NCBI GenBank assembly: GCA_040261535.1
Contig: JBDQNU010000008.1
Coordinates: forward strand, 8,322-72,321
DNA: 64,000 nt
Reading direction: 5' to 3'
Source: Poseidonia sp.
GTDB taxonomy: Archaea > Thermoplasmatota > Poseidoniia > Poseidoniales > Poseidoniaceae
Part shown: one piece after another, positions 7,375-63,476 of the stretch
Layout: every line of letters begins with the position of its first letter
Position numbering within the stretch: the first letter of the stretch is position 1
Notes under the pieces: generated by a model
Told to the model about the DNA's origin: nothing
The model's database searches: none
Seen by the model: the letters and a program-made list of their open reading frames with translations, nothing else
Translations under genes and position numbers: made by a program

Positions 7375-7481
7375 GCGGGCGAGGCCTGTTCAAGAACCCT
7401 GCGGGTTGGAAGTCCGTTGAACATGATGAGCGTGGTCTTCTTCGCCGTGGGTATGAAATGCTGCCGATGGTTGCGTTGGTC

Positions 7482-8654
7482 ATGGTGGATGTTGCCGTTG
7501 TCGGCGCAGGTCAAACACGGTACGGTAACCACGACTTGGGCCTGAAGGGGATGTGGGCGGAAGCCGCACGAAGTGCCTTTGCCAGCGTTGACGGCGACTT
7601 CGATGCGAAGATGGTCGACGAGGCATACATCGGCAGTTTGGCTTTCGGCGGTGCCCAACTCGGCAACACTGCGGCCCTGTTGACAGAACATTCTGACATG
7701 GAGGGTCTCCCCGTTCGAAGAGTCGAAAATGCCTGCGCGTCTTCGGGTTTTGCATTTCGGGATGCGTGGATGGCGATCAAAAGCGGTCAGGCCGATGTCG
7801 TGGTCGCCGGTGGTATCGAAAAAATGAATGATCTGACTCCTGAGAGGAGGCGGTATTGGCTGGGCGTTTCCGGAGACACGGAATGGGAGCGACTTGCTGG
7901 GCTCACGTTTCCGGGTACATATGCCCTCATGGCCCGTCGTTATTTCCATGAATTTGACGCAACCCACGACGATTTGGTCCATGTGAGCGTCAAAAACCAT
8001 CTTCACGGTTCGCTCAACCCACTCGCCCACATCCAAAAGGAGGTGGCGTTTGAAAAAGCGGCTTCTGGCTTCATGGTTGCTGACCCGCTCACGCTCTACG
8101 ATTGTTGTCCAACATCGGACGGAGCCTCATGCGTTGTCTTGGCTGCAGACCATGTCGCAAAGCGGATGACGGACACACCCGTTTGGGTTCGGGGGTCCGG
8201 TGCTGCCTCCGACCATCTGGCTCTTCACGACCGTCCATCCATCACCCAACTCAAAGCCACCCAAACGGCAGGACGAAAAGCCTACGAAATGGCGAACTTG
8301 ACACCCCGAGACATTGATCTTGCCGAAGTTCATGACTGCTTTACCATCGCTGAAGTTCTCGCAACCGAAGACCTCGGATTCGCTCAACGAGGAGAAGGAG
8401 GGCGCTTCGCTCGCGAAGGCCAAGGCATCATCAATCAAGGAAGCGTGGCGGTGAACGCCAGCGGGGGGCTCAAGTCCAAAGGCCATCCACTCGGAGCAAC
8501 CGGAACCGGCCAAGTGGTTGAGGTTTTCAAACAACTGCGAGGCCAAGTGGAATCTCAACGACAGGTGAAAGGTGCTGAAGTCGGATTGACCCACAACGTT
8601 GGGGGCTCGGGTGCCACGTGTGCCGTCCATGTGTTCGGGAGGGATCGGACATGA
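7482..8654 (+). CDS. acetyl-CoA C-acetyltransferase (archaeal thiolase, SCP-x-like)
   Basis: VAVVGAGQTRYG, the active-site Cys context VENACASSG, GHPLGATG and NVGGSG are all present. Start trimmed to MVDVAVVG. It lies in the mevalonate context. Confidence 0.85.
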   Translation: MVDVAVVGAGQTRYGNHDLGLKGMWAEAARSAFASVDGDFDAKMVDEAYIGSLAFGGAQLGNTAALLTEHSDMEGLPVRRVENACASSGFAFRDAWMAIKSGQADVVVAGGIEKMNDLTPERRRYWLGVSGDTEWERLAGLTFPGTYALMARRYFHEFDATHDDLVHVSVKNHLHGSLNPLAHIQKEVAFEKAASGFMVADPLTLYDCCPTSDGASCVVLAADHVAKRMTDTPVWVRGSGAASDHLALHDRPSITQLKATQTAGRKAYEMANLTPRDIDLAEVHDCFTIAEVLATEDLGFAQRGEGGRFAREGQGIINQGSVAVNASGGLKSKGHPLGATGTGQVVEVFKQLRGQVESQRQVKGAEVGLTHNVGGSGATCAVHVFGRDRT

Positions 8655-9481
8655 CCGCAGAGGTTTGGATGGGCTATCTCGTGGACCATTGTCCGGATTT
8701 TACGGTGGTTCAATCTCCCTTTGTCCTTGGCGATGAACGCGTCTTTGGTGCTGATAGCGACGCCACCACCCTCTCGATTGCTGCGGTTCTTCATCGACTT
8801 CAACACGAGAACGTTGCCTCGGTGGCCGTGCCCGAAGGGATTGATGCAGATGCCCTATCCACGGCTTGCAACATTCAAGTTTGGGACAAAGAATCCGAGA
8901 GCGAACCGGATTGGGATTTGTTGTTGAGCGAAGAAGCCATTCTCGTTCTTGCACGGCCGGGTGCGGAGGTTGAGATTTCCGTCATGGATGTCGCCGTTGA
9001 GGTGGACCAAGCGTTCCACGAAGCCATCGTTGCTGCTTGGGAGATGGAGTTGAACGTGCTCCATGTCAGTCAGGGCGCTTACGTATCCCAAGCCCAATAT
9101 GTTGAAGCCGCCAGCCCGAGGCTATCGCTTTCGGGACAAATGGGGCGCAACGGAGCCGTTTGGCCTCCACGATATTCAGCCAACACGAGTCAGAAGGAAA
9201 ACGGCGTTCACCGCTTAACGCCCAGTGGACGTGTTCTCTCGTGGACCACGCTTTCTGCCGCAGGTGCACCATCTGAATTTTCGCTACGAGCGCCGTTGCT
9301 TGGCGGTGTCAGCACCGTCTTGCTCGAACTCGTCGATGGACCAAACGGGGTGTTTTTGGTCGTTGACGATGAAGAACCTGAACTCTCCATGGATGCTCCC
9401 ATGGAATTGGTCGTTCGACGGATTTACGCTCAAGAGGGATTCATCCGCTACGGCTTGAAGGCCCGAGCCATGCCGGCCTGA
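8651..9481 (+). CDS. DUF35/OB-fold-like protein with a Cys-less zinc-ribbon remnant and an unassigned ~160-aa N-terminal domain
   Basis: The ATG overlaps the thiolase stop (ATGA at 8651-8654). The C-terminal GRVLSWTTL...VSTVLLELVDGPNGVFLVVDD...MELVVRRIY...YGLKA looks like the DUF35 OB fold. The preceding GQMGRNGAVWPPRYSANTS resembles the DUF35 ribbon (C..CG..fPPR..C..C) with all Cys replaced. Confidence 0.5.
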   Translation: MTAEVWMGYLVDHCPDFTVVQSPFVLGDERVFGADSDATTLSIAAVLHRLQHENVASVAVPEGIDADALSTACNIQVWDKESESEPDWDLLLSEEAILVLARPGAEVEISVMDVAVEVDQAFHEAIVAAWEMELNVLHVSQGAYVSQAQYVEAASPRLSLSGQMGRNGAVWPPRYSANTSQKENGVHRLTPSGRVLSWTTLSAAGAPSEFSLRAPLLGGVSTVLLELVDGPNGVFLVVDDEEPELSMDAPMELVVRRIYAQEGFIRYGLKARAMPA

Positions 9482-54898: not shown

Positions 54899-55243
54899 AT
54901 GCGAATACCTATAATCGTCCTGCACAAATTAAGATCGATGCGAAGTTGTATTGACCAACTCTTGGCCCTCCCCCATATCGACGCACCTCGCTTGAAAGGT
55001 GAAGTGCATTACCTTGCAGGCCGTCTTGAGGAACTGCGTTCTCGACGTGCAATTTCAAACGAGGCGTTCTTGGACGCAGGTGCCATTCAGGGCGCTATTG
55101 AACTGGTTGCCAACATGATCGACATGGGCGTGCCACAATCTGAGATTCAGGACCATCTGAAGTCAACGCTTTCTCGTGCGAACCGAATTGAAACCAAACA
55201 TCCCGGTCTGAATTGGGCCGTTGAATCTGGACGTGCGAGTTGA
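54899..55243 (+). CDS. hypothetical protein
   Basis: A 114-aa, predicted helical protein. No family recognised. It lies immediately upstream of the ABC-2 transporter genes. Confidence 0.35.
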   Translation: MRIPIIVLHKLRSMRSCIDQLLALPHIDAPRLKGEVHYLAGRLEELRSRRAISNEAFLDAGAIQGAIELVANMIDMGVPQSEIQDHLKSTLSRANRIETKHPGLNWAVESGRAS

Positions 55244-55250
55244 AACTGGA

Positions 55251-56075
55251 ATGTCCGCGCCACTGCTCGTCGTCGACGAGGTTTCCAAATCCTTTGCAGA
55301 AGTTCACGCACTCCACGAAGTGAGCCTCACGATTCACCAAGGCGATATCGTGGGTTTGGTCGGCTCAAACGGTGCTGGGAAAACAACGCTTCTTCGCCTC
55401 CTTTCCGGCGTCTACCGGCCAAGTTCAGGCTCCGTCCATCTCGGTGATGGAAAGAGCATCTCCACAGCACGACACGCCATCGGCGTCGTCCCGGAAAACA
55501 CCGGACTCTATTCTCGCTTAACGGCCTGGGAAAACATCCGATACCACGCACGAATGCAAGGCATTGATGACGATGAAGCGTGGAAGAGAACGCTGTATTT
55601 CTCTCGGTACTTGGGAATGGAGGACAGTCTCCAGCGGCACACCAAGGGATTTTCGCGGGGCATGCGCCAAAAGACTGCCCTGCTCAGGGCGCTTGCCCAT
55701 GCCCCGAAGGTGTTGCTGCTTGACGAGCCCACCGCAGGCCTCGATGTGACGAGTGCCCGGACCGTTCGGGAATTGGTGAAGCAACTCGGGGAAGAAGGTG
55801 GAACCGTGATTTATTCAACGCACCAACTTGCTGAAGCCGAACGCGTTTGCAACCGGATCATCATCATCCATAACGGGGAGGTACGCGCAGACGGCACCCC
55901 TCAAGAACTCCTGAACATCACGGGTCAGCCCAACCTTGAGGAAGCTTACGTCGCCCTCACCAGCGATGTCGCGCGAGAACGAATGGAAGACAGCAAACCG
56001 CTCAAAGGCGTTGCGAAATGGTGGCGTTCCTTCTTCACGCCGAGATTGCCCAAGGGAGTGGACGAAGATGAGTGA
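55251..56075 (+). CDS. ABC transporter ATP-binding protein (ABC-2/NatA-like)
   Basis: Walker A GSNGAGKTT, Q-loop, signature FSRGMRQK and Walker B LLLDEP are present. Confidence 0.9.
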   Translation: MSAPLLVVDEVSKSFAEVHALHEVSLTIHQGDIVGLVGSNGAGKTTLLRLLSGVYRPSSGSVHLGDGKSISTARHAIGVVPENTGLYSRLTAWENIRYHARMQGIDDDEAWKRTLYFSRYLGMEDSLQRHTKGFSRGMRQKTALLRALAHAPKVLLLDEPTAGLDVTSARTVRELVKQLGEEGGTVIYSTHQLAEAERVCNRIIIIHNGEVRADGTPQELLNITGQPNLEEAYVALTSDVARERMEDSKPLKGVAKWWRSFFTPRLPKGVDEDE

Positions 56076-57285
56076 TCGTCTTCATCGCGTCCGTGTTATT
56101 GCGAAGAAAGAACTCGTTGAATTCGTGAGAGATTGGCGCACCATTGTTGCGATTCTGGTGATACCTCTGTTGATGTTCCCTGTGTTGTTCATTCTCTTCC
56201 CGTTGTTGCTGGCTTCGGAGGCAGCAGAACTGGATGCGTTGATGCTCGACGTTGTTGTGCAAAGCGAAAATGCGACCTCGGAGATGGGCTTGAATTTCAA
56301 CGATTCCAAGATGAACGTAACCTACGAACCGCTCCCTGTGATTGAAGAACTTTCAGCACCGGGGATTGATGATGCACGCTTGAGAAACGGTTCAATCGAC
56401 CTTTTGATTCGTCTGAGAGCAAATGGAAGCGTCACCGAATATGCCCTCATCTACATGTCCACCTCCGAGCAAAGTTTGGAAGCAAGAAGTCGTGCCCTCG
56501 CCACCTTGTCGCAATGGGAAGAAAACGAAACCATCCAGCGCATCACCGATGCAGGTCTCGACCCTGATGAGACGCTCGACCCGTTACGTTGGAACGGCGA
56601 TGTTGCCTCAAGCGATGTCGCAACGCAAGGTGAACAAGCAGGGATGGCGCTCTCGTTGTTCATCCCACTCGTCTTAGCGGTGTGGACGTTTTCATCGGCC
56701 ATCCAACCGTCCATTGACATGACGGCCGGGGAGCGTGAGCGCGGAACCCTCGAGGCTTTGCTTGCTTTACCTGCATCCCGGATGGAGTTGCTGATGGGCA
56801 AATGGCTTGCTGTAGCAACCATTACTGGAATCGGCGTGTTGCTTCAGGTTGCAGGCTTGTTGTTTGCGATTGGTTACCTCGCTTCATCAAATTTCATCTC
56901 TTTGCCCGAAATATCGCTCGCCGCCCTCGGACTTCTTGTACTTGCCGTGCTTCTTTTCGCCGTCATGGTCGTGGCGTTTGAATTGGCCTTGGCCATGCGG
57001 TCCCACAGCGTCAAGGAAGCGGGCTCGATCTTGGGGCCTGCCGTTTTGCTCATCCTTTTCCCGGCACTGTTCACCCAGGTGATCAACTTGGACGGCATCG
57101 AGACCTATTGGTTCGCCATTCCCGTCGTGAACGTTCTCCTCGCCATGCGGGAGTTGTTGATGAATCGTATCGTTGGCCTGCACATCATCACATGGTTGGC
57201 CTCATCACTCCTTTACGCGATAGGAGCAGCATGGTACGCCGCTCGTCAGTTTAAGCGAGAGGACATCGTCACGAGTCTCTCGTAG
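56068..57285 (+). CDS. ABC-2 type transporter permease (NatB-like, with a large extracytoplasmic loop)
   Basis: The start overlaps the ATPase stop. There is an N-terminal TM helix, a ~170-aa loop, then about 5 TM helices (ERERGTLEALLALP motif). Confidence 0.75.
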   Translation: MSDRLHRVRVIAKKELVEFVRDWRTIVAILVIPLLMFPVLFILFPLLLASEAAELDALMLDVVVQSENATSEMGLNFNDSKMNVTYEPLPVIEELSAPGIDDARLRNGSIDLLIRLRANGSVTEYALIYMSTSEQSLEARSRALATLSQWEENETIQRITDAGLDPDETLDPLRWNGDVASSDVATQGEQAGMALSLFIPLVLAVWTFSSAIQPSIDMTAGERERGTLEALLALPASRMELLMGKWLAVATITGIGVLLQVAGLLFAIGYLASSNFISLPEISLAALGLLVLAVLLFAVMVVAFELALAMRSHSVKEAGSILGPAVLLILFPALFTQVINLDGIETYWFAIPVVNVLLAMRELLMNRIVGLHIITWLASSLLYAIGAAWYAARQFKREDIVTSLS

Positions 57286-58840
57286 TGCTGAATGCAACAA
57301 TAGCTTCCCTGACGATACCGACGATGAGATCGATTTCTTCCGATGTGATGTTGAAGTGCGGTGTGAATCGAAGTGCGTTGACGCCACCGTGAATGACCCC
57401 TAAGCCTCGACGACGGCACCATGGCTCAACAGCCTCCATCCCAACGACCGGGAAGTGGTTGGGCTCAAGTTCTGCGCTGCACAAGAGGCCGGTCCCTTGG
57501 ACTTTCGTGATAACGTCAGGGAATTCAGATTGCAATCGAGTGAACTTTTCGACAAATTCGTTGCCGCGTTCCCGAATGTTTGCGCGAAGTTCTGGGGTGA
57601 TGGAATCGAGGACATTGACGGCGGTTTCCAAGGCCCTGGGATTCGTGGTCATCGTGTTTCCATAAATGCCAGTGACGTACAATTCTGCGGCCCGTCCGTT
57701 CATGCCGAGGACAGAGAGCGGGTATTGGCCTGCGTTCAACGCCTTTGACCAGGTTTCGAGGTCGGGCGCCTCAGCGGTTTGGAATCCCTCGTAATCGATC
57801 ACAGAAAGCGTACCTTGGCCCCGAATACCCGCTTGGATGGAATCAACGAGAAGCAGGCTACCGTGCTCCTTTGTCAATCGGCGTGCCTCGTCGTAAAAAG
57901 CCCGGTCCACGCATTGACCGGGATTGCCTTCGCCTTGAACCGGTTCAATCGCCATGAGTTCAATGAATACATTGTTGGCTTCTGCATGAGCGAAGGCTTC
58001 CTGAAGGGCCGCTACATCATTCGCTGGTACGAGAATGAGGTTGTTCCTGTTCTGAAAGCTCGCCAAGACTTTGTCGTATTTGCCTTTGCATGAATGGGAC
58101 ATTTGGGCCGGTCGGTCGGTTCTGCCGTGGAAGCCTTGCTCTACGGCCATGATTTTGATTTCTGCACCTGCGTAGCGGCCGCCGTCTTGCGTCATGTTCT
58201 TCGCATTGACGTCGGCAATTCGCATGCTCACCGTGACGGATTCCGAGCCGCTGTTCATGCAGATGAACTTCTCAAAAGGGCACGAGCCGCGGGTGTGGCC
58301 CAGTTCCGTTCTCAGGCGTTGTTCAAGCCTCTTCTGAGAAAACGAGGGCGTCATGACGTTGGCCATGACCCAATTTTTCGACATCGCATTGATGACCTCC
58401 CGAGGGCCGTGTCCGCCACCAAGCATGCCGTAACCGCCGTTATCATGGACAACGGCTCCGTGCGACGTGATGACCCATGGGCCTCGAGCAGCAAGAGCAA
58501 CGTAGGGATTGACCGTCGCAGGGTTGTAAAAATTCACGAAACCATCTTGCAAGTATTCAATCAAGGTCAATTCATTAGAGCCCTCGTACCTTGCGCCGAA
58601 CTCACGTTTGAACCAAGAAAACATGTGGTTGGCTTCGTCAATAGCCTCACCAAGCAACGGGTCAAGATCGCAGAACGTGTTGATTTCTTCATCGTTCAGG
58701 CCCGGGGTGGTGATCTGCCCCACATACGACCGAATCGTCTTGAGAACATCCAAGGGACCTGCAAGCGTGGGTTTCTGCATGGTAAAGAATTCACCGAGGA
58801 ATCCTTTGAAGGTTGGGTTTAGGAGGGTTTTATTTTCCAA
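57269..58840 (-). CDS. class-III (fold type I) PLP-dependent aminotransferase with a long N-terminal extension
   Basis: GSESV, GFHGRT, LLVDSIQAG (equivalent to DEVQTG) and SKALNAGQYP (the PLP-Lys context) are present. Substrate unknown. Confidence 0.75.
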   Translation of the reverse strand: MENKTLLNPTFKGFLGEFFTMQKPTLAGPLDVLKTIRSYVGQITTPGLNDEEINTFCDLDPLLGEAIDEANHMFSWFKREFGARYEGSNELTLIEYLQDGFVNFYNPATVNPYVALAARGPWVITSHGAVVHDNGGYGMLGGGHGPREVINAMSKNWVMANVMTPSFSQKRLEQRLRTELGHTRGSCPFEKFICMNSGSESVTVSMRIADVNAKNMTQDGGRYAGAEIKIMAVEQGFHGRTDRPAQMSHSCKGKYDKVLASFQNRNNLILVPANDVAALQEAFAHAEANNVFIELMAIEPVQGEGNPGQCVDRAFYDEARRLTKEHGSLLLVDSIQAGIRGQGTLSVIDYEGFQTAEAPDLETWSKALNAGQYPLSVLGMNGRAAELYVTGIYGNTMTTNPRALETAVNVLDSITPELRANIRERGNEFVEKFTRLQSEFPDVITKVQGTGLLCSAELEPNHFPVVGMEAVEPWCRRRGLGVIHGGVNALRFTPHFNITSEEIDLIVGIVREAIVAFSTTRDS

Positions 58841-58878
58841 GAATCGCTACTTTTGTATTCTTCTGGTAATCGCCTACG

Positions 58879-58888
58879 AATATATATA
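58879..58888. promoter_or_regulatory. strong TATA element in the divergent intergenic region (aminotransferase <-> RHH-folE operon)
   Basis: aatatatata is centred about 26 nt upstream of ATG 58910, which predicts a leaderless or near-leaderless mRNA for the preQ0 operon. It could also serve the minus-strand gene. Confidence 0.45.
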
Positions 58889-58909
58889 CTGGTTTTGGGA
58901 GGCCCACTC

Positions 58910-59080
58910 ATGCCCAAGGTCTCCCTTGACATGCCGGCTGAGTTGGTGGACGACCTCAAATTGCATGTTGGCGATGATGGTAAATTTGTGAGCTTGGCCG
59001 ATGCCATCCGTACGGCTTGCCGAAAATTGCTCGACCAACTGGACGCGATTGACGCCTTGCACGGGAGGAGATCATCATGA
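58910..59080 (+). CDS. ribbon-helix-helix (CopG/MetJ-like) protein
   Basis: The 56-aa MPKVSLDMPAELVDDLKLHV...FVSLADAIRTACRKLL fits the RHH strand-helix-helix pattern. The stop overlaps the folE start (ATGA). Confidence 0.6.
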   Translation: MPKVSLDMPAELVDDLKLHVGDDGKFVSLADAIRTACRKLLDQLDAIDALHGRRSS

Positions 59081-59655
59081 CGCCAACAAGAAACGATGCT
59101 GAACAAGCGGTGAGGACCCTTCTCAATTATCTCGAAGGTACCGAGAATGCCGACCGTGAGGGACTGGACAAGACCCCTGCAAGGGTCATTGATGCGTGGG
59201 ATGAAATTTTTGCAGGTTATGGCATGAACGCTGGAGACATCTTGGAAGCGACGTTCAACGCCGAAGGATACAACGGAATTGTTTTGCTGAGGGACATTGA
59301 GTTCACATCCACCTGTGAACACCACCTCCTCCCGTTCCGTGGCCGTGCCCATGTTGCCTACATCCCTGTTGAGCGCATCGTCGGCATCAGTAAACTCGCC
59401 CGTATTGTTGAGTTGCATGCGAGGAAATTGCAAAACCAAGAGAGAATCACGAAGGGCGTTGCTGACGATCTTGAACGTGAACTCCGTCCGCTGGGCGCTG
59501 CTGTCATCTTCGAAGCATCCCATGGTTGCATGCAGTGCCGAGGGGTGGCCAAGCAGCAAGCGGTCATGACCACTTCGGCGATGCGTGGGGTCTTCTTCGA
59601 TAAGCAAGAAGCCCGAGCGGAACTCATGCAACTCATCCAACAACCCCCCCTTTGA
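59077..59655 (+). CDS. folE: GTP cyclohydrolase I (FolE type IA)
   Basis: GLDKTPARV, STCEHHLLPF, ISKLARIV, QERIT and HGCMQCRGV are present. Confidence 0.9.
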   Translation: MTPTRNDAEQAVRTLLNYLEGTENADREGLDKTPARVIDAWDEIFAGYGMNAGDILEATFNAEGYNGIVLLRDIEFTSTCEHHLLPFRGRAHVAYIPVERIVGISKLARIVELHARKLQNQERITKGVADDLERELRPLGAAVIFEASHGCMQCRGVAKQQAVMTTSAMRGVFFDKQEARAELMQLIQQPPL

Positions 59656-59664
59656 GGTGCGAGG

Positions 59665-60324
59665 ATGACATACGGTGCTTGCGAACGGGCTGGAAATGCT
59701 CAGACGGATGACCCGGCTGACCTTGCAGCGGAATACAACATCGTCGAAATCTTCCATTCGGTTCAGGGTGAGGGTTTCCACAACGGGATCCCCCACGTGT
59801 TCATTCGTTTTGGCCGGTGCAATTTGCGCTGCGAATGGTGCGACACCAATTTTGATGAATACACGAGCATGAATGCCCTGGATATCTTGGGTGAGGTGAT
59901 GAAGTATCCAGCAAAGAGAATCATCTTTACCGGAGGAGAGCCGATGTTGAACGACCTTTGGCCCTTGTCGAGGTTGCTTAAGCGAAGAGGGTACCACCTG
60001 TCCATTGAGTCCAACGGCACGGTTGAGATTCCCGAGGGAATGTTGGATTGGATTTGCATTTCACCGAAGGACCAAGTCTACCCAAACGTGGCGGTCAAGC
60101 AACGAACAGGTGATGAACTCAAATGCGTCTATGTTGGTCAACCGCTTTCCCTGTACGACGAATTGGCTTCAGGATTCAAGCACCTGTTCCTGCAACCCTG
60201 CTACGATGAAGGTGCAAGTGTGGAAGACAACGGGCGATCCTTTGCCATGACCGAGGCCGTTGTGAAGGAAAACACGGACTGGCGGTTGTCCCTGCAAACG
60301 CACAAATGGATGGGCATTCTCTGA
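59665..60324 (+). CDS. queE: 7-carboxy-7-deazaguanine synthase (radical SAM)
   Basis: EIFHSVQGEG, FIRFGRCNLRCEWCDT and FTGGEP are present. Confidence 0.85.
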   Translation: MTYGACERAGNAQTDDPADLAAEYNIVEIFHSVQGEGFHNGIPHVFIRFGRCNLRCEWCDTNFDEYTSMNALDILGEVMKYPAKRIIFTGGEPMLNDLWPLSRLLKRRGYHLSIESNGTVEIPEGMLDWICISPKDQVYPNVAVKQRTGDELKCVYVGQPLSLYDELASGFKHLFLQPCYDEGASVEDNGRSFAMTEAVVKENTDWRLSLQTHKWMGIL

Positions 60325-60336
60325 GGTGAACCTTGC

Positions 60337-61491
60337 ATGAATCACGCAGTCATGGCTTTGAGTGGGGGAATGGATTCCTCATCCCTTCTGTTGCATCTCT
60401 TGCGAAAAGGAATCGCCGTAACGGCCGTCTCCTTCAATTATGGACAAAAGCACACCGTGGAATTGGAACGGGCTGCATCCCTTGTGGCTTACCTCCGAGA
60501 AAACGGGCATGCAATCAACCATCAAGAAGCCGATTTAAGGAGCGCCATGGCGTTGTTTCGAAGCGACCTGCTGCTCTCCGGAGGCGAGGTACCTCAAGGC
60601 CATTACGAGGAGGACAACATGAAAGCGACCGTCGTTCCGAACCGTAACGCCATTTTTTCCTCCCTGCTCTACGGCATTGCCCTTTCGCTCTCCGAGGAAA
60701 CCGATGGTTCCGTGAGCGTTGTCCTTGGCGTACATAGCGGAGATCACGCCATCTATCCAGATTGTCGACCAGAGTTCTATCGTGCCCTTGAGCATGCCTT
60801 CCAATTAGGGAATTGGGACAGCGAGCGTGTTGGATTTGAGCTCCCTTTTCTCTTGAAAGACAAGACATCAATCCTCAAAGATGCCTTGGAATCCGTGAAT
60901 CACCTCGGCCTGGATTTTGATGAGGTTTTTCGCAGAACCATCACCTCATACGACCCCGATGACGACGGTCGTAGTCACGGAAAAACGGGTTCTGATGTTG
61001 AGCGAATCTTGGCTTTTCACGCCATCGGAAAAACGGACCCCGTCGAGTACATCCAACCGTGGGAGGTTGTCCTGGAAGACGCTCTCACCATCGAACGTAA
61101 GCACAAGGACCAACACTACCGAGAAACCCTCACGCCTCTTCAATACCACGTCACGCGGGAAAGCGGGACCGAACGGGCGTTCACCGGGGATACATGGGAC
61201 GAAAAACGCACTGGAATGTACACCTGCATTTGTTGCAACACCTTGTTGTTCACCTCATCAATGAAATTCGATTCAGGGTGCGGATGGCCTTCGTTCCATA
61301 CTGAACACGAGGAAGCAAACATCGTGAGAATCGAGGATTTCACCCACGGCATGGTGCGAACAGAGGTCCGATGCAGCGTTTGCGATGCGCATCTCGGGCA
61401 TGTTTTCAACGACGGGCCGAAAGCCTACGGTGGCGAGCGATACTGCATCAATTCGGCTTCCATGACCTTTACCGTTGAGGGGGATGAATGA
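60337..61491 (+). CDS. queC: fusion: QueC-like 7-cyano-7-deazaguanine synthase (Zn-Cys cluster absent) plus methionine-R-sulfoxide reductase MsrB
   Basis: The N-terminus has the PP-loop ALSGGMDSS, NYGQKH, VPNRN and YPDCRPEF. The C-terminal ~135 aa have LTPLQYHVTRESGTERAF, CICC, GWPSF, CSVCDAHLGHVFNDGP and RYCINS. It is one continuous 384-aa ORF. Confidence 0.8.
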   Translation: MNHAVMALSGGMDSSSLLLHLLRKGIAVTAVSFNYGQKHTVELERAASLVAYLRENGHAINHQEADLRSAMALFRSDLLLSGGEVPQGHYEEDNMKATVVPNRNAIFSSLLYGIALSLSEETDGSVSVVLGVHSGDHAIYPDCRPEFYRALEHAFQLGNWDSERVGFELPFLLKDKTSILKDALESVNHLGLDFDEVFRRTITSYDPDDDGRSHGKTGSDVERILAFHAIGKTDPVEYIQPWEVVLEDALTIERKHKDQHYRETLTPLQYHVTRESGTERAFTGDTWDEKRTGMYTCICCNTLLFTSSMKFDSGCGWPSFHTEHEEANIVRIEDFTHGMVRTEVRCSVCDAHLGHVFNDGPKAYGGERYCINSASMTFTVEGDE

Positions 61492-61946
61492 TGACGACAA
61501 CCATACGAAGATACATCGAAACCGACACAGGTCACCGAGTTCCAAACCACAAGTCGAAATGCAGGCACTTGCACGGCCATCGGTACCGATTTGAAGCCGA
61601 AATTGAAGGTGATGTCGTCCAAACCAGTGGCGTATCTGATGAGGGAATGCTGATGGATTTTTCAGACATCAGTGCAATACTGACCGAACATGTGCACGAT
61701 GTGGTCGACCACGCCTTCGTCGTCTACGAAGGCGACAAAGAAGGTCGTGAAGCATGCAAAGCGATGGGCTCAGAACATCGGACCGTGGTGGTCCCGTTCA
61801 TCCCGACCGCTGAAAACCTCGCTAAGTGGGCATTTGAAGCGGTCCATCCCCACATCCAATCGGTCTATGGGAATCGATTGCAACTTGTTGCGATGCATTG
61901 CCGGGAAACGCCCAAATCGGTCGCCACATGGCGGCCTTCAACGTAA
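61488..61946 (+). CDS. queD: 6-carboxy-5,6,7,8-tetrahydropterin synthase (PTPS family)
   Basis: TGHRVPNHKSKCRHLHGHRY (CxxxHGH) is present. Length is 152 aa. ATGA overlap with queC. Confidence 0.85.
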   Translation: MMTTTIRRYIETDTGHRVPNHKSKCRHLHGHRYRFEAEIEGDVVQTSGVSDEGMLMDFSDISAILTEHVHDVVDHAFVVYEGDKEGREACKAMGSEHRTVVVPFIPTAENLAKWAFEAVHPHIQSVYGNRLQLVAMHCRETPKSVATWRPST

Positions 61947-62765
61947 ACGGCGACGATGTTCCTTCATCCAATGGGGGTCATTGTTGCTGAATTCAAGAGC
62001 CGAGGTGGCTTCGACAAATGCCCCGATGAGCCGGGTGGTTTCCTCATTGGAGGGTGTGCCCTTGAGGAGCGTCCGCTTGAGCGTGAGTTCAATGGATTCA
62101 AGCCGTTCATCCGGTCCACTCATGCTTGATGCAAATTGATGAATCGCCTGAAGAAGGGTTTGTCTGACGTTCGGTTCCAGGACTTGGGCAAGGGGCACGA
62201 TGTCGGGCATCGCGGGATCCGTACCTTGGCCTGCGAGAACCCTCGAGCGATGGGCTTCGTAGATCATGGCGTTCACCGCGTGTGAGAGGTTGGCGATGGG
62301 GTATCCTTCCCAAGTAGGTAACGTTACGAAGTAATCGCAGGAAGCGAGGTCCTCACGAGAGAGACCTTTTCCTTCTTCTCCAAAAACCAGAGCTACCTTT
62401 CCTCCAGCCCTTTCTTCTCGTTGAACCATGTCCCAAGGATACAAATAATGCCGGAACAGCGTTTTGTCACCCACCTCCCGTTTTCCTGAGGTCCCCACCA
62501 CGGCTCTGCAATCTGCAACGGCTTCGGCAAGGGTCGTGTGCACCTTTGCTTCATCCAGAACGTGCTGGGCATGTTTGGCCCGTGCTCGGGTTTCGTCTTC
62601 GTCAACCGAACATTTGGGGTTCACTAGACGCAAGTCGGCGTAGCCATAATTCAGCATGCTTCTGCAAATGGCGCCAAGATTACCCGGGTGAGAAACCCCC
62701 ACCAGAACGACGACAAATTCGACCTTGCCTTCCGGAAGGCCAAGGGGTAACCGATCGCCCATCAT
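61938..62765 (-). CDS. SpoU/TrmH-class RNA 2'-O-methyltransferase (TrmJ-like) with C-terminal extension
   Basis: VVLVGVSHPGNLGAICRSMLNYG, ALVFGEEGKGLS and ANLSHAVNAMIYE are SPOUT motifs. Confidence 0.75.
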   Translation of the reverse strand: MMGDRLPLGLPEGKVEFVVVLVGVSHPGNLGAICRSMLNYGYADLRLVNPKCSVDEDETRARAKHAQHVLDEAKVHTTLAEAVADCRAVVGTSGKREVGDKTLFRHYLYPWDMVQREERAGGKVALVFGEEGKGLSREDLASCDYFVTLPTWEGYPIANLSHAVNAMIYEAHRSRVLAGQGTDPAMPDIVPLAQVLEPNVRQTLLQAIHQFASSMSGPDERLESIELTLKRTLLKGTPSNEETTRLIGAFVEATSALEFSNNDPHWMKEHRRRLR

Positions 62766-63001
62766 TCATCCGCTCCCTCGCGATTCTCAAAGAAGGAGGC
62801 GATCCACCTGGGGTCACAGACCTGATAGATGAAGAAGAGATACCCGTCGTTTTCACGGTCCGGCATGACAATCGATCGTTTTCGCACGTTGTGCCGATTC
62901 CGTAGATGGAGAATCAACTGTTCAAGAATCTCCGTCTCGGCTGCGTGGACGCTGACGGGTTGACGATCCCAGTCAACCCAAAGCGACACTTGGAACACCA
63001 T
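62762..63001 (-). CDS. hypothetical small protein inside the ribosomal-protein operon (weak resemblance to archaeal LX/eL20)
   Basis: A 79-aa ORF whose ATG shares a base with the S17e stop and whose stop overlaps the methyltransferase start. LILHLRNRHNVRKRSIVM vaguely recalls the LX ...GS(R/K)H(K/R)VKRxxI segment. Confidence 0.4.
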   Translation of the reverse strand: MVFQVSLWVDWDRQPVSVHAAETEILEQLILHLRNRHNVRKRSIVMPDRENDGYLFFIYQVCDPRWIASFFENREGADE

Positions 63002-63195
63002 CAATCGGTTCGACGGCTCCGATAGCGGGTCACGTATCCTGCAATCCAATTTCGGAGTTTCTTGTTCGAACCCACATCGGTGAGTTGCTCAACCATGTGC
63101 TTGTTGTGATCGAAATCATCGGTGAATTTCTCACCGTGTTCCTCACAAAGGCGAATGGCTCGGATTTTGATAAAACTTGGACGAATATTTCCCAT
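63001..63195 (-). CDS. rps17e: 30S ribosomal protein S17e
   Basis: [13 protein letters not shown]...FTDDFDHNK...[14 protein letters not shown] matches conserved S17e. An alternative start MKEM is at 63204. Confidence 0.85.
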
Positions 63196-63200
63196 CTCTT

Positions 63201-63476
63201 TCACTCCTTCATCAATTTGACTTCAACAGGGAAGTCGGGTTCATCGTGGCGAATCACCATGAGGCGCACTTTGCGAGGAGGGTTTTCAATGCCTCGCTTC
63301 CAAATGAATTCGTTAACCTCGGGGTCAATGTAGAGTTCTTCATCCTCCTTGACTTTGAGGTGGCGGATGACTTGTTCGCGGATGATCTGCATGGCTCTTG
63401 GGGCCCGCTTGTAACGGGTGATGTTCCATGCGTTCCGGAGGGGGACAATAAGCTCGGATTCGTTGGGTCGTGCCAT
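63201..63476 (-). CDS. rpl31e: 50S ribosomal protein L31e
   Basis: LIVPLRNAW...[18 protein letters not shown]...[23 protein letters not shown] matches L31e. Confidence 0.9.

Follow-up and report, generated by a model that had tools for sequence, protein, structure and literature searches.

A QueC-MsrB fusion protein in the preQ0 operon of Poseidoniales and a marine QueC clade without zinc-site cysteines

A 64,000-nucleotide stretch of Poseidonia sp. DNA (assembly GCA_040261535.1, contig JBDQNU010000008.1), referred to in full as the window, carries an open reading frame (ORF) in which QueC, the synthase of 7-cyano-7-deazaguanine (preQ0), is joined to methionine sulfoxide reductase B (MsrB). 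The fused gene, queC::msrB, occupies 60337..61491 on the plus strand, starts with ATG and encodes 384 amino acids (aa). The fusion is conserved in Poseidoniales, and its QueC domain has no cysteine at the four-cysteine (Cys4) zinc site of the family. The same cysteine-free QueC was also found free-standing, and the loss of the cysteines and the fusion to MsrB arose independently. Judged from its sequence, the protein is probably a zinc-independent, otherwise canonical preQ0 synthase to which an ordinary MsrB of the thioredoxin type, previously the next gene downstream in the operon, has been joined.

The fusion is real and conserved

An earlier note, made from the nucleotide sequence, had described a single ORF joining QueC to a complete MsrB, and profile searches bore this out. 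Pfam QueC (PF06508) matched aa 4-229 with an E-value of 4e-38 (131.4 bits against a cutoff of 22) and Pfam SelR/MsrB (PF01641) matched aa 265-379 with an E-value of 2e-49 (167 against 24.9), while the NCBIfam MsrB model TIGR00357 scored 169.5, above its cutoff of 113.05. All of the motifs quoted in the note were recovered from the protein, namely ALSGGMDSS, VPNRN, YPDCRPEF, CICC, CSVC, GCGWPSF and RYCINS. The two domains join around aa ~250-262 (nt ~61085-61122), which falls in the originally proposed range. The QueC domain was delimited as aa 1-254 (60337..61098, +), as free-standing relatives stop at the equivalent of aa ~250-260 and share its C-terminal helix, and the MsrB domain as aa 255-384 (61099..61488, +) based on Pfam SelR, TIGR00357 and matches to the Protein Data Bank (PDB). 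In an AlphaFold2 model of the whole fusion (mean predicted local distance difference test, pLDDT, 89.9; predicted template modeling score, pTM, 0.84) a continuous helix, assigned with DSSP and compared across the junctions of related loci, is predicted to run over the boundary at aa 242-264 (61060..61128, +).

Homologues of the fusion were searched for among 5.8 billion proteins. This resulted in at least 120 protein clusters at 71-97% identity, every one of which contained both PF06508 and PF01641. The clusters were drawn from four independent sources (ENA, JGI, NCBI and Logan assemblies), and those that carried a name were all Poseidonia or Poseidoniales, that is, marine Group II archaea. 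The same fusion was present at 25 independent loci in metagenome-assembled genomes (MAGs). An assembly or indel artifact of this one contig, which would have to be reproduced as the same open frame in all of these clusters and MAG loci, is refuted by the conservation of the fusion across samples and its probability is negligible. In an alignment of 121 fusion proteins the cysteines of MsrB, the PP-loop of QueC and the YPDC motif were invariant.

Two of the loci deserve separate mention. At L020 (8001-9080) the fusion is intact except for a lone in-frame stop codon in its QueC part (HYE-stop-EQMK), the result of either a sequencing error or recent pseudogene formation. Locus L016 is labeled as Phycisphaerae MAG MED703 and was probably mis-binned, since its contig carries the complete archaeal operon and synteny.

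The QueC domain lacks the zinc ligands

Relatives of the QueC domain were collected in a HMMER search with aa 1-250 over 1.84 billion representatives and were then aligned to the query. The nearest canonical relatives read TNTCYNPD.EGRSCGKCGSC.ERLEAF where the query, over an equal length, reads TITSYDPDDDGRSHGKTGSDVERILAF (aa 201-227; 60937..61017, +). The columns of the four zinc ligands are occupied by S204, H214, T217 and D220. These correspond to C186, C195, C198 and C201 of Bacillus subtilis QueC (3BL5), as mapped via the canonical relative P0162. The earlier note had thus located the zinc site correctly, and its statement that no cysteine is left there also stood, as alignment with the B. 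subtilis protein recovered no ligands. The sole cysteine of the QueC part is C143 in YPDC, with none in aa 144-296, and among the 121 aligned fusion proteins cysteine was absent from every column of aa 188-296.

The former zinc segment is highly conserved among the fusion proteins. The position of H214 is not conserved, relatives having S, D, A, N or Q there, so no alternative metal site is maintained. Across the clade the four ligand positions of the knuckle are Ser, a variable residue, Ser/Thr and Asp. AlphaFold2 modeled the segment at pLDDT 94-97 with a helix beginning at residue 218, and the model suggests that T217-G-S-D220, at the N-terminus of this helix, probably caps it through hydrogen bonding in place of the metal.

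Three QueC homologues (P0186, P0204 and P0267) have the fourth ligand alone changed, giving Cys-Cys-Cys-Asp (CGSDIERLEAF). From their sequences, these forms suggest possible intermediates and a stepwise path to the cysteine-free state. Genome-wide sparing of zinc was considered as a cause of the loss and judged unlikely, as the operon keeps a type IA FolE and the MsrB domain keeps a Cys4 site of its own. Type IA FolE is a zinc enzyme. Many QueC homologues of 390-730 aa were seen to contain inteins, which are inserted at three conserved positions: (a) between H137 and A138 in query numbering (HSGDH/C...HN/CIYPDC), (b) just before the first zinc cysteine and (c) just before the fourth. Site a is used in P0123, P0124, P0151, P0161 and P0186, site b in P0258 and site c in P0139; P0123 is itself an intein-bearing, cysteine-free QueC of the SSSD type.

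Cysteine loss does not depend on the fusion

In order to evaluate how far the two features go together, species genomes of GTDB were scanned, which yielded 80 loci, followed by tblastn and ORF extraction; taxonomy was taken from the genome scan. Three forms of the operon were found in Poseidoniales and QueC is cysteine-free in all of them. In the first form, seen at 25 loci and, interrupted by an internal stop codon, at one more, queC and msrB are fused with one of two junctions. The long junction reads ...IERKHKD..YRE.LT.LQYHVT and occurs in proteins of 375-386 aa. The short junction reads ...ALKAQLRHYVMKENGTE, occurs in proteins of 358-368 aa in which ~12 residues of the N-terminal helix of MsrB are absent, and was seen in several loci, including ones that bear the name Thalassarchaeum or Thalassarchaeaceae. 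In the second form (10 loci), queC encodes 253-262 aa, ends with a stop codon and is followed by a separate msrB before queD, mostly in a different reading frame. The third form, at seven loci, is folE-queE-queC-queD with no msrB. Either fused to queC or as a gene of its own, msrB is placed after queC and before queD at 35 of the 42 classifiable Poseidoniales loci, in both families.

Free-standing cysteine-free QueC proteins were 253-284 aa long and were found at 17 Poseidoniales loci, at ~15 loci of Planctomycetota and on one virus-like contig. The bacterial examples come from ~15 marine Pirellulaceae/Planctomycetota MAGs (L041-L053, L058 and L060), are 53-61% identical to the archaeal QueC, and mostly show the pattern S-H-T-D at the ligand positions with a few SSTD or SDTD. 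No msrB was found within ~8 kb of the Pirellulaceae QueC. At the one planctomycete locus that was inspected (L046, QueC at 7983-8792) the neighbors were bacterial, resembling ComM, a WYL regulator and RlmKL by eye from their translations, and no que genes stood near QueC. The viral example, at 3258-4040 of L081 (Logan contig SRR31655989_3204), is a cysteine-free QueC of the SSSD type. Its neighbors are GTP cyclohydrolase I, dUTPase, an AAA protein, a split DnaE polymerase, RNA ligase and DNA ligase. A second type of cysteine-free QueC, S-D-S-S (TSYKP...SDYKSASSVERVEAF), is encoded at 2917-3798 of L082, the Flavobacterium phage vB_FspM_immuto_3-5A (MW353176). This is a cultured Baltic Sea phage, and its QueC is annotated as 7-cyano-7-deazaguanine synthase.

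The earlier note had offered, as one explanation, that the zinc module of MsrB structurally replaces the lost QueC site, so that cysteine-free QueC would depend on the fusion. That both features occur in one polypeptide speaks for this. The free-standing forms listed above do not fit it: as cysteine-free QueC exists unfused, its viability cannot come from the zinc module of MsrB. Confident modeling moreover puts the former zinc segment within the QueC domain itself. Replacement by the MsrB module was accordingly given up as very improbable, and cysteine loss is independent of the fusion because the same cysteine-free QueC exists unfused.

In a neighbor-joining tree of QueC domains, which carries no support values, the fused, separate and msrB-less forms were interleaved and the Pirellulaceae sequences lay inside Poseidoniales. 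This grouping suggests inter-domain transfer of QueC to Pirellulaceae. Use of the tree to count fusion events was set aside, since it is without support values.

The QueC domain retains the features of a preQ0 synthase

An alignment of 89 sequences that included many zinc-type QueCs has 16 invariant columns, and the query keeps all 16. Among these are S9, G10, G11, D13 and S14 of the PP-loop, R103, N104, Y140, D142, K176 and R223. The PP-loop, SGGMDS at aa 9-14 (60361..60378, +), is the motif that binds the pyrophosphate of ATP (PMC13639016). In YPDC at aa 140-143 (60754..60765, +), Y140 and D142 are the counterparts of Y129 and D131 of B. subtilis QueC, whose equivalents contact the deazaguanine moiety in the structure of Cap9 and are replaced by Thr in QatC (PMC13639016). 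Comparison of the model with Foldseek, with the template modeling (TM) score normalized to the target, gave 0.73-0.74 for 3BL5, 0.69 for 2PG3 and 0.75 for Cap9 (9NTO). Profile match, PP-loop, Tyr/Asp contacts, fold and genomic association are thus all those of QueC, and the Cys4 site and a score above the strict equivalog cutoff are absent.

The genomic association is consistent. The earlier note had placed the gene in a standard folE-queE-queC-queD operon, and folE, queE and queD do flank the fusion. QueC lies directly after queE in the window and at all 46 related Poseidoniales loci, and the gene order folE-queE-queC-queD is the same at these loci as far as each contig reaches. A complete queC is located between queE and queD in 40 of 40 Poseidoniales loci (at three with no detected queD, it is directly after queE), and no other operon gene at these loci could supply the QueC step. 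The assignment of the domain as the QueC of the preQ0 operon, with its ATP motif and the residues contacting 7-carboxy-7-deazaguanine kept, is thereby supported at the level of sequence.

The MsrB domain resembles characterized reductases

A search of PDB sequences showed the MsrB domain to be 49-54% identical to human MSRB3 and E. coli MsrB, with RYCINS, GCGWPSF and both CxxC pairs aligned to these proteins. The catalytic cysteine, C370 (61444..61446, +), lies in RYCINS, which matches RYCINS in MSRB3 and RYCVNS in the E. coli enzyme. The two zinc pairs are C297/C300 in CICC (61225..61236, +) and C346/C349 in CSVC (61372..61383, +), and C315 in GCGWPSF (61279..61281, +) occupies what we take to be the resolving-cysteine position of MsrBs. 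Each of these cysteines is invariant in the 121 sequences. The TM scores of the model to MsrB crystal structures were 0.66-0.76. The domain therefore has a score above the curated cutoff, the catalytic and GCGWPSF cysteines and the two CxxC zinc pairs of its family.

Interpretation of the fused gene

The reading that we consider probable is that two genes already adjacent in the Poseidoniales operon, (small ORF)-folE-queE-queC-msrB-queD, were fused in frame, for which the simplest route would be loss of a stop codon and of a short spacer. The N-terminal domain would then work as an ordinary QueC, in which the PP-loop and ATP activate 7-carboxy-7-deazaguanine for conversion, via the amide, to the nitrile preQ0. 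This preQ0 would feed archaeosine synthesis, the enzyme dispensing with a structural Cys4 zinc site. The C-terminal domain would be an ordinary thioredoxin-dependent methionine-R-sulfoxide reductase in which Cys370 is catalytic and Cys315 resolving, and which has a Cys4 zinc site of its own. Zinc was probably lost in an ancestor shared by the present-day QueCs of Poseidoniales, marine Pirellulaceae and some marine viruses, which form one clade, and this loss is unrelated to the fusion. Going by conservation, both catalytic activities are most likely present. We infer that the QueC domain is metal-free and that fusion rather than fission was the direction of events.

Several observations weigh against this. 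The NCBIfam equivalog model for QueC, TIGR00364, gave a score of only 126.9, which is below its cutoff of 150.3. Replacement of the four zinc cysteines of the related QatC by alanine severely reduced QatABCD's anti-phage activity (PMC13639016), meaning that dispensability of the site is not a given. Retention of msrB in the operon of most Poseidoniales, with more than one junction design, exceeds the persistence expected of an accidental neighbor. Finally, the pTM of 0.84 hints at a fixed inter-domain arrangement and possibly at real coupling.

The low equivalog score and the loss of a family-wide structural feature would also agree with a change of function, in which the QueC-like domain has ceased to make preQ0 and a canonical queC elsewhere in the genome serves the pathway. 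Its product might then be the amide, or the domain might, like Cap9 and QatC, attach deazaguanine to a protein; roles outside biosynthesis are on record for members of the QueC family (PMC13639016). Such a change is nevertheless quite improbable. The gene fills the queC slot of the preQ0 operon at every complete locus with no substitute among the operon genes, Y140 and D142 are retained where QatC has Thr, and the partner genes of Cap9 and QatC are not among the neighbors. Moreover, tblastn with the fusion recovered itself alone, so that the 64-kb window holds no second queC or msrB.

Functional coupling of the two domains was weighed as a further alternative. MsrB could repair oxidized methionines of the preQ0 enzymes (for example M12 in SGGMDS or M95 of QueC), or the operon could constitute an oxidative or light-stress module of sunlit-ocean archaea in which the fusion fixes stoichiometry or proximity. 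The position of msrB between queC and queD at 35 of the 42 classifiable loci in both families is in line with coupling, as are the two junction designs ~12 residues apart and the pTM together with the continuous junction helix in the model; exchange of an oxidation-sensitive Cys4 site would likewise fit a theme of oxidative adaptation. Seven Poseidoniales loci however do without msrB in the operon, Pirellulaceae have the same QueC with no msrB nearby, and the methionine of SGGMDS is common to many zinc-type relatives. No experiment or paper linking the enzymes was found in the literature searched, and coupling of this kind is on balance unlikely, although it is the alternative to which we assign the most weight. 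The earlier note had raised a Rosetta-stone link between the two activities. This gains partial, indirect support, since other Poseidoniales have msrB unfused but still placed between queC and queD, which makes the association a conserved gene neighborhood and more than a fusion; a functional link is hypothetical, and some operons have no msrB. The order-wide association of msrB with the preQ0 operon is genuine at the genomic level and has no known biochemical rationale.

A more direct part for the MsrB domain in 7-deazaguanine metabolism, with its cysteine acting on the preQ0 nitrile in the manner of QueF or QueF-like, or with the domain keeping the pathway enzymes reduced, is improbable. Direct participation of the cysteine in deazaguanine chemistry is unlikely because the domain is ~50% identical to characterized MsrBs. 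Fusion of a zinc-independent preQ0 synthase to a neighboring MsrB is the most probable mechanism and an ordinary one. The finding itself is solid and without description in the literature searched (titles and abstracts), where we found neither a QueC-MsrB fusion nor a link between the two enzymes; searches on Poseidoniales and archaeosine likewise returned nothing relevant at the level of titles and abstracts.

Comparison with known systems

The N-terminal domain is like QueC of known structure (3BL5 and 2PG3) in its fold (TM 0.69-0.74), the PP-loop SxGxDS, the Y-P-D-C motif, the Arg after the knuckle and its position in the operon. It differs in having S/H/T/D in place of the zinc cysteines, in a longer C-terminal helix, in the fused MsrB and in falling under the TIGR00364 cutoff. 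The C-terminal domain is like the zinc-containing MsrBs of E. coli (6SYM) and human (MSRB3, 6QA0) in sequence identity, the CxxC pairs, GCGWPSF and RYCINS, but it is joined to the C-terminus of QueC. Relatives with a short junction lack part of the N-terminal helix of MsrB, and what is left of it is spliced onto the helix of QueC.

Fusions of QueC domains in 7-deazaguanine pathways have a precedent in GAT-QueC of Crenarchaeota and in phage Gat-QueC. There the partner is an N-terminal glutamine amidotransferase, whose chemical link as nitrogen donor is obvious. In contrast, the partner in Poseidoniales is a C-terminal sulfoxide reductase with no obvious chemical link. MsrB is also a module of multi-domain proteins in the MsrA-MsrB and Trx-MsrA-MsrB (PilB) fusions, structures of which were matched by the model, but the partners there belong to the same repair pathway and QueC does not. 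The QueC fold is shared with the defense proteins Cap9 of type IV CBASS (9NTO, TM 0.75) and QatC of QatABCD, a branch that the fusion protein does not otherwise resemble. QatC retains and needs the Cys4 site and has Thr/Thr for the Tyr/Asp contacts (PMC13639016), which are kept here as Y140/D142. The partner genes of Cap9 and QatC (CD-NTase/TGT-like and QatA/B/D, respectively) are absent, the neighbors being folE, queE, queD and a SpoU methylase.

Implications

The Cys4 zinc site is regarded as a constant of the QueC family, and the results reveal a large and strongly conserved natural clade without it. Members of this clade come from abundant marine archaea, from planctomycetes and from viruses of the sea, and a cultured phage has a QueC of a second cysteine-free type. 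A natural zinc-free QueC lineage is worth noting because QatC retains and needs the zinc site (PMC13639016). If the cysteine-free QueCs are active, the site would be structural and replaceable, and they provide ready sequences for working out how it is replaced, capping by Ser/Thr/Asp being one candidate. The fusion is also mislabeled by automatic annotation, as NCBI names it only as "MsrB" and it goes undetected by the equivalog model for QueC. Lastly, the association of msrB with the preQ0 operon extends across an order that ranks among the most abundant archaea of surface seawater.

The operon and its surroundings

The genes folE, queE, queC::msrB and queD lie on one strand and are packed tightly or overlap. 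FolE, GTP cyclohydrolase I of type IA, is encoded at 59077..59655 (+) and matched Pfam GTP_cyclohydroI with an E-value of 9e-64 and TIGR00063 with a score of 198.4 against a cutoff of 181.6. The radical-SAM enzyme QueE, 7-carboxy-7-deazaguanine synthase, follows at 59665..60324 (+); its best NCBIfam matches were QueE models (TIGR04508, E 1.6e-37, below cutoff), and Pfam Radical_SAM was also matched. Downstream of the fusion, queD at 61488..61946 (+) encodes 6-carboxytetrahydropterin synthase (Pfam PTPS, E 7.5e-26; TIGR03367 at 81.9, just under the cutoff of 89.25) and its start overlaps the stop codon of the fusion (ATGA).

The probable first gene of the operon is a small ORF of 56 aa at 58910..59080 (+), whose stop overlaps the start of folE. 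By tblastn this ORF, MPKVSLDMPAELVDDLKLHV..., was found directly upstream of folE at 43 Poseidoniales loci with 67-95% aa identity, which exceeds that of most operon genes. It matched no Pfam family even at E-values up to 10. By eye it resembles a ribbon-helix-helix protein and may be the regulator of the operon.

Elsewhere in the window, the earlier note had pointed to a thiolase-associated DUF35-like protein that had likewise lost its zinc-ribbon cysteines, and the sequence is consistent with this. The ORF (8618-9481, +), downstream of a thiolase at 7458-8654, gave a weak, sub-threshold match to an OB-fold (OB_ChsH2_C, E 7e-4) and has no CxxC pairs at the expected position of the zinc ribbon (…GQMGRNGAVWPPRYSANTSQ…). 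Pfam scans of six of the largest ORFs in the window identified EF-2, a P-type ATPase, MetRS, a molybdopterin oxidoreductase, an OPT transporter and urocanase, and neither tgtA nor arcS was among these six.

A class-III aminotransferase at 57269-58840 (-) adjoins the operon in only 10 related Poseidoniales loci. The order of the remaining genes is conserved in Poseidoniales (window positions 55221-63476, compared with L001-L040), running from an ABC transporter through the small ORF, folE, queE, queC(-msrB) and queD to a convergent SpoU-type methyltransferase and then ribosomal protein L31e.

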